The notes under the pieces were generated by a model. The model searched no databases. It worked only from the letters and a program-made list of their open reading frames with translations, and was not told where the DNA came from. From a candidate division TM6 bacterium GW2011_GWF2_28_16 (GTDB lineage Bacteria > Patescibacteriota > Microgenomatia > UBA1400 > PJMF01): DNA of 64,000 nucleotides. Shown here piece by piece: positions 9,781-62,166 of this stretch; the stretch's first letter is position 1; every line of letters begins with the position of its first letter. A program made the translations under genes and the position numbers. The DNA is taken from the NCBI GenBank assembly GCA_001029715.1, contig CP011212.1, forward strand, positions 195,407 through 259,406, in the 5' to 3' direction.

Positions 9781-9879
9781 AAAAAGAAAGGAACGAATTT
9801 ATTTTTCGATGCATTGCGCCACCCGAGTGAACGTCTTCACTCGAGAGACGCTGAGGAGAAAAATATAATTCGTGAAATT
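9781..9879 (+). promoter_or_regulatory. conserved ~100-nt leader element (copy A) upstream of rnj, with hairpin 9824-9843
   Basis: Near-identical to 34759-34862 upstream of tuf. The hairpin CGAGTGAA-CGTC-TTCACTCG covaries with copy B. Confidence 0.6.
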
Positions 9880-11541
9880 ATGTCCAAACTAAAACTTTTA
9901 CCCCTAGGGGGAATGGGTGGTGTCACCCAAAATATGTATTTATATCAATATGAAAAAGAAATTCTAATTGTCGATTGTGGCATTGGTTTTCCTGACATGT
10001 ATATGCCAGGCGTCGATACTTTGATTCCTGATATTAGTTATTTACAAGATCAGCTCGAACAGGGCGCTAAAATTGTTGGTATGATTCTTAGTCATGGCCA
10101 TGACGATCATATTGGAGCTTTACCTTATTTATTGGGTGAATTGCCAAGCTTCCCAATTTATGGTTCACCTTTGACGATTGGTTTTGCGCGCGATCGTATC
10201 TCAGAGAAGAAACTCGATCGTGACATGCAAGCTATTTCTGACGAGAGAATTACTAAAATTAGCGATTTCTTTTCATTTGAATTAATTCCAATGACTCATT
10301 CTGTACCAGATACAAGACACATTGTAATTGATACACCAGTCGGTAGAATTTATCACGGCAGTGATTTTAAACTTGATAAAGCTCCAGTTGATGGCATTCT
10401 GTCAGACATGGAAGAAATCAAAAGAGTTGCCGATCAGGGTATTTTGTTAGCCATGATTGATTGTTTGCGTGTTGAAAGAGATCAGTGGACTAAATCAGAA
10501 TCAACTATTACTCCAGTTTTCGAAGAAGAAATGGCCAATGTCAAAGGTAAGATTTTGGTTACCTTGATGAGTTCCCATATTCATCGTATTCAACAGGTAG
10601 TTAATGTTTGTGAAGCTATTGGACGCAAAGTGGTTTTTGTGGGTCGCAGTGTTGAGCAAAATATGGTTGTAGCCACTATGCTAAAGAAATTACGCATGGC
10701 TCCTGGAACTCAAGTGGATAAGAAACACATTAGCGAAGTTCCAGATAATCAGCTCTGTGTTATTATTGCTGGCAGTCAGGGTCAAGAGGGTTCATCGCTA
10801 GTGCGAGCCGTTTATGGCGAGCATCGTATTATCCAAATTTCTCCAGAGGATAAAGTGATTTTTTCAGCTGACGCTATTCCTGGCAATGAAATTAATTATT
10901 ATGCAGCTATTGATGAATTGTCTTCCAATAATGTTGATGTGGTTTATCCAACCATTAACTCAGGCATTCATAGCTCTGGTCATGCTAGTGCCATTGAGCA
11001 AAGAGAAATTGTCGAAGTTTTAAACGCTAAATACATCATGCCAATTGGTGGTGCCAATCGCCATCGCGCTCTTTTCAAAAAACTTGTGGCTCCAGTTCTC
11101 AATTACGATAATCGCCATGTTTTATTGCCTGATTCTGGTCAAGTGCTTGGTATCGACGAAAACGGTATCCAAGTAGTTGATGAAGTTTTACTCAATGCTA
11201 AAGCAGTTGATGGTTTAGGAATTGGTGATGTTGGACCAGTGGTTTTGTCAGATCGCCTCTCTCTTTCTAAGTCAGGTATTATTGTTTTGATTATTCCAAG
11301 AACCAAAGGACAATTTGACTTCAAAGAAATGAAAGTCATTTCTCGAGGCTTTGTCTTTATGAAAGAAGCTGATGAAGTCATTCAATTTATTAAGCAAAAA
11401 ACTGCCGAGATAGTGGGTGATGAAGCACAGAATATCAAAGATGACGATCTCAAGAGAAAAATTGAGCGTCGTTTGGCAAAAAAACTATATAAAGTGATTC
11501 GTAGAGAACCAATTATTGTACCGGTAATTTTGGAAATGTAG
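9880..11541 (+). CDS. rnj: ribonuclease J
   Basis: Metallo-beta-lactamase HGHDDHIGALPYL, beta-CASP and C-terminal domains. ATG at 9880 (MSKLKLLPLGG) is preferred over the upstream TTG. Confidence 0.85.
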   Translation: MSKLKLLPLGGMGGVTQNMYLYQYEKEILIVDCGIGFPDMYMPGVDTLIPDISYLQDQLEQGAKIVGMILSHGHDDHIGALPYLLGELPSFPIYGSPLTIGFARDRISEKKLDRDMQAISDERITKISDFFSFELIPMTHSVPDTRHIVIDTPVGRIYHGSDFKLDKAPVDGILSDMEEIKRVADQGILLAMIDCLRVERDQWTKSESTITPVFEEEMANVKGKILVTLMSSHIHRIQQVVNVCEAIGRKVVFVGRSVEQNMVVATMLKKLRMAPGTQVDKKHISEVPDNQLCVIIAGSQGQEGSSLVRAVYGEHRIIQISPEDKVIFSADAIPGNEINYYAAIDELSSNNVDVVYPTINSGIHSSGHASAIEQREIVEVLNAKYIMPIGGANRHRALFKKLVAPVLNYDNRHVLLPDSGQVLGIDENGIQVVDEVLLNAKAVDGLGIGDVGPVVLSDRLSLSKSGIIVLIIPRTKGQFDFKEMKVISRGFVFMKEADEVIQFIKQKTAEIVGDEAQNIKDDDLKRKIERRLAKKLYKVIRREPIIVPVILEM

Positions 11542-11644: not shown

Positions 11645-13843
11645 ATGGCTAATTTTAAACGCAGCAAAAGAAAAAAACGCAAAGCAATTCGTCTTAAAAT
11701 GCGTAGCGACACTAGTTATTCAGTAGTGGCAGTTCTATTGATTTTGCTTGGTTTATTGGTCTTAATTTCATTTACCGGTCAAGGTCAATTGCTTATTTTC
11801 ATCAATGATATCCTGTCTTTAAAGTTTGGTTTATCAATGTTGTTTTTACCTTTTGTTTTGATTTCTGCAGGCTTAGTAATGCTACGTAGTAAACATGCTT
11901 GGTCAAAACCAACTATTTTACTTGGCACGATTTTACTAATGCTTGGTACCATGGGCGTTACTAAAAGTGGACAAGTAGGTTCAAGTCTTTTTGTTAATTT
12001 TGCCAGACTAATTACTGAATCTGGTTCCTATGCTTTTTTTAGCGCCATTGTTTTAATTGGTATTTTAATTTTGTCCCAATCTTCTTTATTGGAGCTGGTT
12101 GAATTACTTGGCAAATTATTTAAGAAGAGAGCCAAAGATAAAAAAGAAGCTAAAGATATTTTTGCTGATCAAGTCAGCGAAAAGGAAATCACTAAAGCCA
12201 AGGGTTTTTCTATTCCTAATTTTGGTTTTGGATTTAGTAAAGACAAAGGTCTTAAAAAAGGCTCTTCTTTTAATGAGGAAATTGAACAAGATAACAGTAG
12301 TGCTAAGGCAATTATTGAAGACGAGCTTAAAAAAGAAACCTCTTCTTCCAATCTTGATAATCAAGAAGCTCTTAACGCCTCTTCAGTGCCAATGATGTGG
12401 GATTATCCACCTTTATCCTTACTCTCACAAAAGTCTGGTGGCAAAGCCGACCGTGGAGATGTCAAAGGCAACGCAGCGATTATTGAAAACACTTTGGATT
12501 CTTTTGGTATTCAAGCCAAAGTGACTGAATATAATCCTGGTCCAGCAGTTACTCAATATGCGCTAGATATTAACAAAGGTACTCGTTTATCTAAGATTAC
12601 TGCTCTATCAACTGATTTAGCTTTAGCTTTATCTGCTCCAACTGGACAAATTCGTATCGAGGCGCCAATTCCAGGTCGTAATTTAGTTGGTGTTGAAGTG
12701 CCAAATCGTAGTGCTGAGTATGTCACTCTCAAAACCATGTTGTCATCTCCAGAGCTTAAAAAGCATAAATCTAAATTAGCCGTGGCTCTTGGCATAGATG
12801 TAGCTGGTCGTCCATCGATTGTTGATATTGCGGCGATGCCTCATTTATTAATCGCTGGTTCAACTGGTTCTGGTAAATCTGTTTGTATTAACTCTTTTAT
12901 GTGCTCAATTTTGTTTAGAGCTACGCCAGAAGAAGTTAAGTTTATTTTGGTTGATCCTAAGCGTGTCGAATTAACTGGCTACAATGACATTCCTCATTTA
13001 TTAACTCCAGTAATTGTTGAGCCAAATAAGGTTGTTTCTGCACTCAAGTGGGCCTGTCAAACTATGGACAAGCGCTACAAAATGTTGGCAGAAGTAGGTG
13101 TCAAAAATATTAATGAATATAATGAACTAGCTGGTTTGGCTTCCATGCCAAACATCGTGATTGTGATTGATGAGTTGGCTGATGTAATGCTCTTTGCGCC
13201 TTCAGAAGTTGAAGAGAGTGTGACGCGTATTGCTCAGATGGCTCGTGCCGTTGGTATCCATTTAGTTTTGGCTACTCAGCGTCCTTCTGTGGATGTCTTG
13301 ACCGGACTGATTAAAGCTAACGTACCAACTCGTATCGCTTTTAACGTGGCTTCGATGATGGACAGTCGTGTCATTTTGGATAGTCCAGGTGCAGAAAAAT
13401 TGCTTGGTCGTGGTGATATGCTTTTCCAAGCTCCAGACAAACCAAAGCCATCTCGTGTCCAGGGTACTTTTGTCAGTGTTCAAGAAACCAATAATTTGAT
13501 TAATTTCTTAAAATCCCAGGGTCAAAAACCTCATTATGAGGAAGAAATTACTACCAAGTATCAGTCTAGCAAAGTTACTGGGGGCAGTATGGGTTCTGAT
13601 GATGGTGGTGGATCAGATATTGATGATAAATGTGAGGCAGCGGCGCGGCTCTTTTTGACCGCCGATAAGGCTTCCTCCTCTTTGATTCAGCGTCGCATGT
13701 CTGTTGGCTATGCCCGCGCCGCTAGAATTCTAGATCAACTCTACGAACTCGGCATGGTTGGCCCTCCAGATGGCAGTAAGCCAAGAGAAGTCAACAACGG
13801 CAAAATTAGAGAGTTTTTGATGAGCAAAGAACAAGAAGGATAA
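11645..13843 (+). CDS. ftsK: DNA translocase FtsK/SpoIIIE
   Basis: N-terminal TM segments, Walker A GSTGSGKS, and a C-terminal gamma winged-helix (LIQRRMSVGYARAARILDQL). Confidence 0.85.
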   Translation: MANFKRSKRKKRKAIRLKMRSDTSYSVVAVLLILLGLLVLISFTGQGQLLIFINDILSLKFGLSMLFLPFVLISAGLVMLRSKHAWSKPTILLGTILLMLGTMGVTKSGQVGSSLFVNFARLITESGSYAFFSAIVLIGILILSQSSLLELVELLGKLFKKRAKDKKEAKDIFADQVSEKEITKAKGFSIPNFGFGFSKDKGLKKGSSFNEEIEQDNSSAKAIIEDELKKETSSSNLDNQEALNASSVPMMWDYPPLSLLSQKSGGKADRGDVKGNAAIIENTLDSFGIQAKVTEYNPGPAVTQYALDINKGTRLSKITALSTDLALALSAPTGQIRIEAPIPGRNLVGVEVPNRSAEYVTLKTMLSSPELKKHKSKLAVALGIDVAGRPSIVDIAAMPHLLIAGSTGSGKSVCINSFMCSILFRATPEEVKFILVDPKRVELTGYNDIPHLLTPVIVEPNKVVSALKWACQTMDKRYKMLAEVGVKNINEYNELAGLASMPNIVIVIDELADVMLFAPSEVEESVTRIAQMARAVGIHLVLATQRPSVDVLTGLIKANVPTRIAFNVASMMDSRVILDSPGAEKLLGRGDMLFQAPDKPKPSRVQGTFVSVQETNNLINFLKSQGQKPHYEEEITTKYQSSKVTGGSMGSDDGGGSDIDDKCEAAARLFLTADKASSSLIQRRMSVGYARAARILDQLYELGMVGPPDGSKPREVNNGKIREFLMSKEQEG

Positions 13844-13845
13844 AG

Positions 13846-14243
13846 TGGAGATGGCGGGTTATGAACCCGCGTCCGTATCCAAATGTTTAAATAGCTTCTA
13901 CAGATTTAGTTTGCTTTCGATTAAAGATCAATAAGTTGTACAAACAAACTTTTACTGACCTATCCGCGTTATGTCTTAGAACTTTTTGCAACGCGAGTTC
14001 AAAAAGTTAGCCAAGTGACTGAGTTTTCACTTACCTATCTGCATCACTAACACAAATAAATAAATGCCTAAATTAGCAATAAGCTAAAGCAGGAGCATTG
14101 AAACTGGCAACAAAATTGCTGACAGCAGTCTTTGCTTTTGAGATTATGTTATCGACATTTATTGTCCGGGCCTTTTTAATGTCTTTGGTCCAAAGACAAT
14201 CTGCGACTATCTAAAAGATGTTACGTCAAAGCAATACATCCCC
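13846..14243 (-). ncRNA. ssrA: tmRNA (SsrA)
   Basis: On the minus strand, the 5' GGGGATG pairs with the 3' CATCTCC to give G3:U70, and the discriminator is A. The T-arm is GCGGG-TTCATAA-CCCGC. An internal 44-codon stop-free frame ends ...PALAYC-TAA. Length is 398 nt. Confidence 0.7.
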
Positions 14244-15038: not shown

Positions 15039-15112
15039 GGACAATTAGCTCAGTTGGTTAGAGCGCACGATTCACATTCGTGAGGTCACAAGTTCGAGTC
15101 TTGTATTGTCCA
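15039..15112 (+). tRNA. tRNA-Val (anticodon CAC)
   Basis: Cloverleaf with acceptor GGACAAT/ATTGTCC, D-arm GCTCAGTTGGTTAGAGC, anticodon loop TTCACAT and T-arm ACAAGTTCGAGTCTTGT. No encoded CCA. Confidence 0.85.
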
Positions 15113-15154
15113 CAAGAAAGAGTATTAAGTTGAAATTTAAAAGGGAAAATTTTT

Positions 15155-34662: not shown

Positions 34663-34758
34663 ATAATCCAAATCGCTTGTTTTGCCTGTTTTTTTAAGGT
34701 AAAATACAAGCTCGACAGCAATAATAATTGTTATTTTATAAATTAGTAAACAAATAAA

Positions 34759-34862
34759 AAAAAGAAAGGAGTGAATTTATTTTTAGATGCATTTGATCAC
34801 CTGAGTAAACGTCTTTACTCAAGAGATCACTGAGGATAAAAATAAGATTCACGACATACATT
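34759..34862 (+). promoter_or_regulatory. conserved ~100-nt leader element (copy B) upstream of tuf, with hairpin 34802-34821
   Basis: Aligns base-for-base with 9781-9879. The hairpin TGAGTAAA-CGTC-TTTACTCA carries two compensatory base-pair swaps relative to copy A. Confidence 0.6.
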
Positions 34863-36059
34863 ATGGCAGACGCAAAAAAATTTGTCAGAAGTAAGCCGCA
34901 TGTTAACATTGGTACCATTGGTCACGTTGATCACGGTAAAACCACTTTAACTGCAGCTATTACTCAAACCTTAGCTAAACAGGTTCCATGTGAAACCAAT
35001 AAAGCTATGCTTTACTCAGATGTTGAGAGCAGTCAAGAAGAAGTTGCTAGAGGTATTACCATCAATATTAAACATATTGAATATGAAACCTCAAAACGTC
35101 ACTATGCTCATATTGATGCTCCAGGTCATGCTGATTACATCAAAAATATGATTACTGGCGCTGCTCAAATGGATGGTGCTATCTTAGTCGTAGCCGCTAC
35201 TGATGGCCCAATGCCTCAAACTCGCGAGCACATTTTGTTAGCTAATCAGGTTAACGTGCCAAAGATCGTTGTTGCTTTAAATAAATGTGACATGGTCGAT
35301 GATGCAGAATTATTAGATTTAGTTGAATTTGAAGTTCGTGATCTTTTGACTAAATACAATTACGATGGAGAGAATACCCCAGTCATTCGCGTTAGTGCAG
35401 CTAAAGCTTTGGCAGGTGATGCAGATGCTCAGGCCAAAATCATGGAATTAATGGATGCAGTAGATAGCTACATTCCAGAGCCAGTTCGTGATATTGATAA
35501 GCCTTTTAGTATGTACATCGAAGATGTTTTTTCAATCAAAGGTCGTGGCACTGTCGTTACTGGTCGTATTGAAAGTGGTGTCGTCAAAGTTGGCGAAAAC
35601 ATTGATATCATTGGTATTCGTCCTAAAGTATCATCTACCGTTACTGGTGTTGAAATGTTTAGAAAAATGCTCGATCAAGGTCAAGCAGGCGATAACGTTG
35701 GTATTTTGCTTCGTGGCATCGAAAAAGATGGTGTTGAAAGAGGTCAGCTCTTGGCTAAGCCAGGTTCTGCTTCTGCTCACAAGAAATTCGAAGCTGAAGT
35801 TTATATTTTGAAAAAAGAAGAAGGTGGTCGTCACAAACCTTTCTTCTCTGGTTACAAACCTCAGTTCTACATTAGAACAACTGATGTTACCGGTGAAATT
35901 AAACTTCCAGATGGAGTTGAAATGGTTATGCCTGGTGATAATGCTAAGATGACTGTTGAACTCTTAGTGCCAGTCGCTGTTACCGAGGGTTTCCGCTTCG
36001 CTATTCGTGAAGGTGGATTAACTGTTGGCGCAGGTGCTGTGACCAAGATTTTGGATTAA
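34863..36059 (+). CDS. tuf: elongation factor Tu
   Basis: [36 protein letters not shown]. Confidence 0.97.
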
Positions 36060-36091
36060 CTTTCACAGTCTTAGAAAAAAGAAACAAAGAA

Positions 36092-36116
36092 ACCCCGCTT
36101 TATAGCGGGGTTTTTC
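36092..36116 (+). terminator. rho-independent terminator after tuf
   Basis: ACCCCGCT-TTATA-GCGGGGT hairpin followed by TTTTT. Confidence 0.8.
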
Positions 36117-36330
36117 TTTATTAGTTACTCTTGCTCTCCCTACTTCCTTCTGGTACAATACAATCCTCTCGAGAAATATGGGAGTAATTTGTTTTTTTGA
36201 GCATTTCTAAAGAAAACTGTTTGAAGAAATATACAAATTTCCCCTGTACAAGAGGGAGAGAATTAGATATAATCGCGTTTTGTGATTTAAGAGATCACAA
36301 ACATAGAGAAAGCAATAAATTAAAAATAGT

Positions 36331-47502: not shown

Positions 47503-47574
47503 TTAGTTTTGCTAGAGGATGATTATTTTTCTAAATCTGGTATAATATTGCGGTTACTTTGAAAAAATAATCAT

Positions 47575-47904
47575 ATGGGTAAAGTACAAGATCATAAAAG
47601 AAGTTCTAAGGTCAAGCGACAGGTCGATTTTACGCTTCATAGCGCCGATAGTCAGACTGACCGCTTCGAAATACTTGGCGAAGTGGTAGATTGTCTACCA
47701 AACACCATGTTTAGAATTAAAGTGACAGAGGCCACTGCAGAGCAGATGGTTGGAAGAATGTTGTTGGGAACTTTGGCTGGCAAAATGCGCCTTTATCGCA
47801 TCAGGGTAATGCCTGGAGATTTTGTCAAAGGTTATGTCTCTAAATATGACTTAACCAAATGTAAAGTGACCTACCGCAGTAGTAAAGAAAAAAGTATAAA
47901 ATAA
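47575..47904 (+). CDS. infA: translation initiation factor IF-1 with N-terminal extension and an internal insertion
   Basis: LPNTMFRIK...GKMR.YRIRV..GD.V..Y.SKYDLTK.KV.YR S1-like core. Confidence 0.8.
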
Positions 47905-61889: not shown

Positions 61890-62083
61890 AAAAAATGAGT
61901 GAGGGGAATAAAGCTTTTTTAAAGCGTGCTTGCTTGACTGTGCGGAGATGACTCGCCCTGCGGGCATTAGGCGGGAACTTGTCGCGCTTTGCTCGATTGC
62001 GTTCTCTCCGTCAGGATTTAGAATAATCTTTTTCTTCTTTCACATTGTCAATCACTTTAGCTTCGCTAGATTGTTTGCCAATG

Positions 62084-62166
62084 CGGAGATGACAGGATTC
62101 GAACCTGCGAAGCCGTGAGGCTCACGCTTTCCAAGCGTGTGCAATTGACCGCTATGCGACATCTCC
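62084..62166 (-). tRNA. tRNA-Ser (anticodon GGA), type II with long variable arm
   Basis: Acceptor GGAGATG/CATCTCC, anticodon loop TTGGAAA, variable arm AGCCTCACGGCTTC and T-arm GCAGGTTCGAATCCTGT. No encoded CCA. Confidence 0.85.

Follow-up and report, generated by a model that had tools for sequence, protein, structure and literature searches.

Hairpins located in operon leaders and intercistronic regions serve as RNase III processing sites in E. coli, as in rnc, pnp and metY-nusA-infB, and in the early mRNA of phage T7. In CPR bacteria (Patescibacteria), very few recognisable regulators are present. A hairpin may also lie within the translation initiation region, as in the experimentally demonstrated split ribosome-binding sites (RBS) of genes 38 and 25 of phage T4, where the intervening hairpin shortens a spacing of 22 nt to 5 nt and one of 27 nt to 11 nt (PMC3014915). 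Here we analyze a stretch of 64,000 nucleotides (hereafter the window) in which a Shine-Dalgarno (SD)-like box and the start codon are also set apart by a hairpin, both at rnj and at tuf, and we compare this arrangement with the described systems.

Structure of the two copies in the window

Pairwise alignment of the rnj copy (positions 9781-9879) with the tuf copy (34759-34862) gave a mean column identity of about 85% over a region that spans from ~40 nt 5' of the AAAAAGAAAGGA box through to the start codons. The two copies form the longest direct repeat of the 64-kb window (family D1), in agreement with the original prediction, which had placed two copies of ~100 nt at these positions. When two sub-patterns of the element were searched with up to three mismatches, matches were found at the rnj and tuf sites only, the shuffle expectation being 0.00-0.15. 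The sequence of the element at both sites was the same across independent ENA, NCBI, JGI and Logan assemblies, and the agreement among these four sources excludes an assembly artefact. In one NCBI assembly (GCA_018817305.1; L002:10020), the AGAGA loop of the tuf copy reads AGATA, a G-to-T change which breaks a C-G pair; the G is present in all nine other assemblies, and AGATA is either a true variant or an assembly error.

The element is predicted to fold into one imperfect hairpin of 81-82 nt (Table 1). From the base upward, P1 comprises 15 bp, is A/U-rich and contains one bulge, and is followed by a 4 × 4 internal loop (GAUG/AGGA), P2 (2 bp), P3 (3-5 bp), an internal loop of C/U-CACC versus AGAGA that holds two isolated C-G pairs and, at the tip, an 8-bp P4 closed by a CGUC tetraloop. 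In the tuf copy, P3 is UGAU/AUCA with one C bulged. The central 8-bp hairpin to which attention had been drawn at the outset does exist, but it is only the tip of this larger structure. The AGAAAGGA box is located directly 5' of P1, and 6-10 unpaired nucleotides separate the hairpin from the ATG. In the predicted folds, the box of the rnj copy is mostly unpaired, and the hairpin still forms in a wider sequence context, with the box and the AUG remaining largely accessible.

Table 1. Coordinates of the features of the element and its surroundings in the window.
Feature	Position	Strand	Basis or remark
AGAAAGGA box, extended SD-like, rnj copy	9785..9792	+	same in 5/5 copies and in the short L020 version
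81-nt hairpin, rnj copy	9793..9873	+	folds, covariation, covariance-model score of 126 bits
P1, rnj copy	9793-9807/9858-9873	+	fold and covariation
Internal loop GAUG/AGGA, rnj copy	9808-9811/9854-9857	+	
P2 CA/UG, rnj copy	9812-13/9852-53	+	
P3 GCG/CGC, rnj copy	9816-18/9849-51	+	
Loop CACC/AGAGA, rnj copy	9820-23/9844-48	+	
P4, rnj copy	9824-31/9836-43	+	
Tetraloop CGUC, rnj copy	9832-35	+	
6-nt spacer GAAAUU and rnj ATG (RNase J, 553 aa)	9874..9882	+	
Promoter-like block TTGTTT-17 nt-TAAAAT, fusA-tuf spacer, 5' of the element	34677..34705	+	conserved in L021/L022
AGAAAGGA box, tuf copy	34763..34770	+	
82-nt hairpin, tuf copy	34771..34852	+	architecture as in the rnj copy; 115 bits
10-nt spacer GACAUACAUU and tuf ATG (EF-Tu, 398 aa)	34853..34865	+	

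The earlier statement that the element is not recognisable as a described riboswitch or r-protein leader was confirmed. At gathering score, Rfam 15 retrieved only the tmRNA and two tRNAs from the window and left the element unmatched, and a scan of both window copies at E<=10 returned just far-sub-threshold eukaryotic snoRNA/miRNA noise, with no credible match. Nothing relevant was found in the literature on a CPR motif resembling the element. The tmRNA gene (13843-14243, minus strand, 89 bits) is located directly after an ftsK-like gene, and tRNA-Val and tRNA-Ser genes occupy positions 15039-15113 and 62083-62166 of the window.

Additional copies of the element

A core-pattern scan that covered 185,579 species genomes yielded a single match, in MAG bin-0562, situated 9 nt 5' of the ATG of a short-chain dehydrogenase (SDR) gene. 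A scan of metagenome contigs, in which the stem sequence was left free, gave two matches, which share one 751-kb contig from the window species, and the covariance model together with sequence inspection identified them as new loci, distinct from the window copies. One of them is located 5' of rplK (context nusG-rplK-rplA) and the other 5' of nusA (context dnaJ-nusA-infB). The known set comprises the rnj, tuf, rplK and nusA copies of the window species and the SDR copy of a second species.

All five copies share a single orientation and a common layout of AGAAAGGA box, hairpin, 6-10 nt and ATG. The hairpin begins 0 nt past the GGA of the box, the post-hairpin spacers measure 6, 10, 9, 6 and 10 nt, and the linear distance from box to ATG is 87-92 nt. 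Every copy lies between co-directional genes (UDG-rnj, fusA-tuf, nusG-rplK, dnaJ-nusA and ABC-SDR). The genes downstream have gene-expression functions in four of the four window-species copies, and the fifth copy precedes a dehydrogenase gene.

Within the 64-kb window, the covariance model run with filters off detected no further copies (next best score, 14.9 bits), and the 86 kb of relatives' loci contained, at lower scores, only a short hairpin in L020 (29 bits) and a terminator of tuf (21.8 bits). Apart from an A-rich stretch of 24 nt that matched by chance, the element was not found in viral, phage or plasmid collections. Placing a hairpin between SD and AUG does not appear to be a general habit, as a generic scan for such hairpins returned only family members, L020 and one weak infA look-alike. 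This look-alike (window 47514-47577) consists of AGAGGA, 2 nt, a palindrome ATTATTTTTC...GAAAAAATAAT around TGGTATAAT, 3 nt and the ATG of an infA-like ORF of 109 aa, whose IF-1 domain starts at residue 32; its layout is element-like and its stem resembles upper P1, and its fold was no better than those of shuffles (z=-0.93). In the window, the tuf-rpsJ spacer (36060-36330, 270 nt) contains an intrinsic terminator after tuf, CCCCGC-TTTATA-GCGGGG-TTTTT (~36093-36115), and a small hairpin before rpsJ, TGTGAT...ATCACA (36281-36299), with AAGAGATCAC common to the tuf copy of the element.

Covariation of the stems and invariance of the loops

In an alignment of the five copies that was fitted to the model, the copies being mutually related, compensatory double changes were observed at 13 of the 30 base pairs and 97.3% of the cells were in standard pairs. 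The closing pair of P4 occurs as three pair types among the five copies. None of 500 shuffles reached the observed pairing and covariation values, and sliding the partners by 1-3 columns made pairing fall to 34-54% and the number of covarying pairs to three at most. Between the rnj and tuf copies alone, five compensatory pairs were counted by RNAalifold and three more were found in the middle helix; the two compensatory pairs previously reported in the apical 8-bp stem (C-G/U-A and G-C/A-U) are correct.

Variable columns amounted to 30 of 60 among the paired positions versus 4 of 22 among the unpaired ones (Fisher p=0.012), and these four variable unpaired columns correspond to bulges or helix-adjacent positions. 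The GAUG, CACC, CGUC, AGAGA and AGGA motifs, as well as the box, are unchanged over the five copies, and variability is highest in the basal arms. As far as sequence comparison goes, these data support a structured element selected for pairing rather than a chance similarity. The fixed orientation just 5' of a start codon fits the cis-acting RNA of the original prediction. The combination of compensating stems with frozen loops is the signature of a folded nucleic acid with a sequence-specific reader, and the invariant loops on covarying stems suggest recognition by a trans partner, be it a protein, the ribosome or a nuclease. The likeness of the loops to 5S loop E (GAUGGUA/GAGAGUA), to the sarcin-ricin loop (CGAGAGGAC), to K-turns and to two-GGA CsrA sites was considered and rejected, since they misfit the covariation-supported pairing.

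Coding content and start codons

Since nearly all RNase J homologues have 553 aa, the rnj start is fixed at ATG 9880; the EF-Tu start is ATG 34863. In some gene calls RNase J appears as a 575-aa protein (P0001) starting from TTG 9814, inside the element, and NusA is called as 440 aa from the element's ATGCAT (L013:6774-6848). The 575-aa start is very probably wrong, and both the 575-aa and the 440-aa forms are probably start-codon misannotations in public records, so that a practical effect of the element is to mislead start-codon calling.

A leader peptide or an N-terminal extension was also considered and rejected. The ORF starting at the invariant AUG has 19 codons in the rnj copy and 5 in the tuf copy, as had been pointed out before, with neither frame nor length conserved; only for rplK and nusA does its frame agree with that of the gene, and its stop codon in the tuf copy, TGA, is made by a covarying stem base. 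Because frame and length of this ORF vary, the element is not coding.

Orthologous sites in related genomes

In the closest relatives (RNase J 84-78%, EF-Tu 93-87%) the gene order is retained, the spacers are short and the hairpin is absent. At the rnj locus, L014 (RNase J 84%) keeps the UDG-rnj synteny with a 40-nt spacer, ...AAAGAAAGAAAAAATTATG, that contains no hairpin, and two more relatives (82% and 78%) are also without it. At the tuf locus, the spacer of L021 (EF-Tu 93%) measures 104 nt versus 200 nt, ends in AAAGAAAGAAAACAAATATG and has no hairpin, and more distant relatives carry ordinary AAAGGAG sites. The SDR orthologues of the window species (79%) and of another relative (82%) have neither box nor hairpin. 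The hairpin is absent in the nearest relatives at all three checkable orthologous sites (rnj, tuf and SDR). L014 and L021 are on one 68,682-nt contig and very probably belong to one organism.

At the rnj position of a further relative, L020 (RNase J 77%), a AAAGAAAGGA box is followed by a 28-nt hairpin (GCAAGTTATTC-TTGAGG-GAATAATTTGC; L020:2061-2088), 9 nt and the ATG. This hairpin, of 11-12 bp with a UUGAGG loop (z=-4.4), has the architecture of the long element, apparently with its basal stem and UGAGG, and either derives from it by deletion or represents its precursor. The tuf-locus spacer of the same organism is, by length only, 121 nt.

The loci of the element differ between the two species in which it is present, and stem identity of the rnj copy was 0.87 with the other-MAG copy versus 0.72-0.80 with the copies of its own species. 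The lack of a hairpin at the orthologous sites of the nearest relatives points to a lineage-specific, dispersing insertion; on the sequences compared, either the element was inserted in this lineage or it has been repeatedly and precisely lost. Judged from these comparisons, the element is a dispersed module of recent origin rather than a leader of rnj and tuf conserved since ancient times. Of the conserved structured leader that had been predicted, the covarying structure stands and the conservation at rnj and tuf does not, the relatives being without the hairpin.

Probable transcription of the element

The promoter-like TTGTTT-17-TAAAAT block of the fusA-tuf spacer is kept in the relative L021/L022 although the spacer there has no hairpin, and in more distant relatives TGTATAAT takes up a similar position in the spacer. 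Transcription of tuf probably starts at this block (34677-34705), which would place the hairpin in the 5' UTR. An extended -10 promoter-like site was found ~80 nt 5' of the nusA copy, and in relatives the spacer before rnj leaves no room for a separate promoter, which suggests co-transcription with the UDG gene. We infer that the hairpin is transcribed as plus-strand RNA; this strand is favoured by the constant spacing between hairpin and ATG, and the evidence from G·U versus C·A positions is mixed. A plus-strand attenuator or terminator was ruled out by the missing U-run (T-run) after the hairpin, and a terminator scan detected no intrinsic terminator at any copy on either strand.

In SDR orthologues (L029:1985-2003; L032:1435-1450) a -10-like TATACT lies 2-7 nt 5' of the ATG, which suggests that leaderless mRNAs occur in the lineage. 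By crude gene calls using the first ATG, an RGGR motif within 16 nt of the ATG was found in 16 of the 74 window genes and was lacking in the other 58, and the leaderless reading fits this second group.

Discussion

We tentatively propose, at a probability that we place somewhat below even, that the element is a transcribed cis-acting module of the translation initiation region whose folding joins a split SD to the AUG and whose loops dock a factor. The module would be made up of the extended SD AGAAAGGA, the 81-82-nt hairpin at once after it, 6-10 unpaired nucleotides and the AUG. The base of the folded hairpin would set the SD box at a normal distance (6-10 nt) from the AUG, and through such bridging the ~80 inserted nucleotides could be tolerated in essential genes such as tuf. 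Through a trans partner that binds the loops, tuf, rplK-rplA, nusA-infB and rnj could be adjusted jointly at the level of translation or decay, and the module would be young and dispersing among leaders.

Two features expected of a split RBS were found at these sites: the linear SD-AUG distance is overlong (87-92 nt), and a hairpin supported by covariation, with predicted folding energies of -20 to -27 kcal/mol, leaves 6-10 nt, where a cut in spacing to ~5-11 nt is expected. The box is present at six of the six hairpin-bearing sites (the five copies and L020), compared with the RGGR motif in 16/74 window genes, and the post-hairpin spacers contain no alternative SD. We take AGAAAGGA to be complementary to the common bacterial 16S 3' tail, ...CCUCCUUUCU, and on sequence it is a better candidate for the functional SD than GAGGAG. 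The GAGGAG/GAGGAT box that had been singled out originally lies 21 and 25 nt from the ATG and is probably not the functional SD. Several points speak against a split RBS. The hairpin is about four times the length of the T4 precedents; most genes of the genome apparently have no SD, so that tuf may not need the box; and the constant 6-10-nt spacer would also be expected trivially from site-specific insertion just after an existing SD. Against the module as such, close relatives thrive without the element, and its fifth copy precedes a dehydrogenase gene. A more ambitious form of the proposal, which we regard as rather unlikely, is that of a portable initiation module in which the ~80-nt hairpin bridges SD and AUG and the loops bind one trans factor, through which a regulator-poor, ultra-small CPR bacterium would coordinate EF-Tu, L11/L1, NusA/IF2 and RNase J post-transcriptionally, and which spreads in the manner of a mobile element.

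The main rival to the split-RBS module, which we also regard as rather unlikely, is a selfish or passively spreading hairpin DNA, mobilised as ssDNA like REP/REPIN, IS200/IS605-derived or attC-like elements. It would insert just 3' of a target resembling AAGGA, would be tolerated because folding removes it from the path, and would not regulate anything. Presence and absence at the orthologous sites of close relatives, the different loci in the two carrier species and the closer kinship of the rnj copy with the other-MAG copy than with those of its own species are in line with such an element, as are the constant left junction right after GGA and the GA found on both sides of the hairpin in four of the five copies. 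Hairpin-DNA recombinases also yield covarying stems with conserved unpaired bases, and compensatory changes are known in REPINs (PMC3116915). However, there are just four copies on window-species contigs, one match among the 185,579 genomes and none in the collections of viruses, phages and plasmids; variation peaks in the basal arms, the reverse of what is seen in REPINs and in MITEs bearing TIRs; and all five copies are located between SD and AUG, four of them at core gene-expression genes, where purging would be expected. Moreover, no transposase gene was found beside any copy and no RAYT gene was seen adjacent to any, and the AAGGA target is missing from the SDR orthologues. As for the features of a TIR-bearing MITE, the termini are variable, and the left GA of the flanks present in 4/5 copies belongs to the conserved box. 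A high-copy REP/REPIN was rejected on copy number (two copies in the window and two more on the 751-kb contig), placement and conservation pattern. A role in mRNA processing or stability appears improbable: either RNase III-type cleavage of the interrupted duplex of ~30 bp would uncouple the downstream cistron from the gene before it, or the SD-like box and the hairpin would form a 5' stabiliser against the 5'-3' exonuclease RNase J, in the manner of the STAB-SD of cry3A. The position of every copy between co-directional genes and the length of the duplex, with its internal loops, agree with this role; RNase J is encoded by the organism, with one of the copies in front of its own gene, and STAB-SD, an SD-like sequence, associates with the 30S subunit and halts RNase J1 (PMC4113751). 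Yet loops of invariant sequence are not a requirement of RNase III, a cut in the lower stem would part the SD box from the AUG, and the tuf and nusA transcription starts, probably ~50-75 nt 5' of the box, would mean that the box is not 5'-terminal.

Two further readings concern DNA or the opposite strand. It is very unlikely that the element is a promoter or operator palindrome, with transcription starting just past a -10-like TAnnAT in the 3' arm, near-leaderless mRNAs and a repressor bound to the palindrome. The rnj copy does contain TCGAGA-17-TATAAT, matching at 10 of 12 positions, TAAGAT (tuf) and TAGAAT (SDR) stand at the equivalent position, and the SDR orthologues look leaderless; but the promoter scan found no plus-strand promoter-like site within the other four copies, the -10-like hexamer falls in the most variable part of the stem, and a dimer operator should conserve its half-sites and not covary via three pair types at one position. 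A promoter block with the transcription start downstream of the hairpin is likewise not favoured, because the internal promoter-like match is restricted to the rnj copy and promoter-like blocks are located upstream of the tuf and nusA copies. The least probable reading takes the minus strand as the functional one, the hairpin followed by UCCUUUCUUUU being an intrinsic terminator or the body of an antisense RNA. In all five copies the minus strand folds more stably than the plus strand (-28 to -41 versus -20 to -27 kcal/mol, a predicted gain of 4-14 kcal/mol), the CCACC/AGAGA loop and several C·A mismatches turn into G·U pairs, and a U-rich tract follows the hairpin. Nevertheless, the terminator scan was negative on both strands, no minus-strand genes are nearby and no conserved antisense promoter was seen, the plus strand is the one favoured by the GAUG/AGGA loop and by the U·G pairs in tuf and L020, and this reading does not account for the constant spacing to the ATG downstream.

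If the hairpin bridges a split RBS, it would far exceed in size every other insertion known to be accommodated between SD and start codon, and the module would be the first of this kind common to several core operons. One RNA module before tuf, rplK-rplA, nusA-infB and rnj would provide a simple co-regulation of gene expression, and the regulon would have originated through dispersal of a structured element. Were the element merely a selfish palindrome, essential initiation regions would still be shown to be able to absorb 80 nt of foldable sequence.

With the hairpins processed by RNase III, the element shares long interrupted duplexes between co-transcribed genes, gene-expression operons included; unlike it, those hairpins are not known to have common conserved loops or to lie between SD and AUG. 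The STAB-SD of B. thuringiensis cry3A (PMC4113751) differs in that it has no initiation role, is situated at a processed 5' end and carries no attached conserved hairpin. Like the REPIN/REP sequences mobilised by RAYT transposases (PMC3116915), the element is a dispersed extragenic hairpin of ~100 nt with compensatory changes and a lineage-specific distribution. REPINs, however, combine highly conserved terminal REP arms with a variable spacer and are present in tens to hundreds of copies at random extragenic positions, whereas the element has variable basal arms, invariant inner loops and four known copies, always between SD and AUG. The T4 hairpins, of ~17 nt and at single genes, differ from the element in size (81-82 nt here), in its conserved internal loops and in its occurrence in at least four operons, where it is known from sequence and predicted folds. 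As in T4 genes 38 and 25 (Nivinskas/Malys; PMC3014915), the SD is linearly too far from the AUG and a stable hairpin gives a spacing of 5-11 nt, and in both cases the arrangement arose only within a narrow clade.
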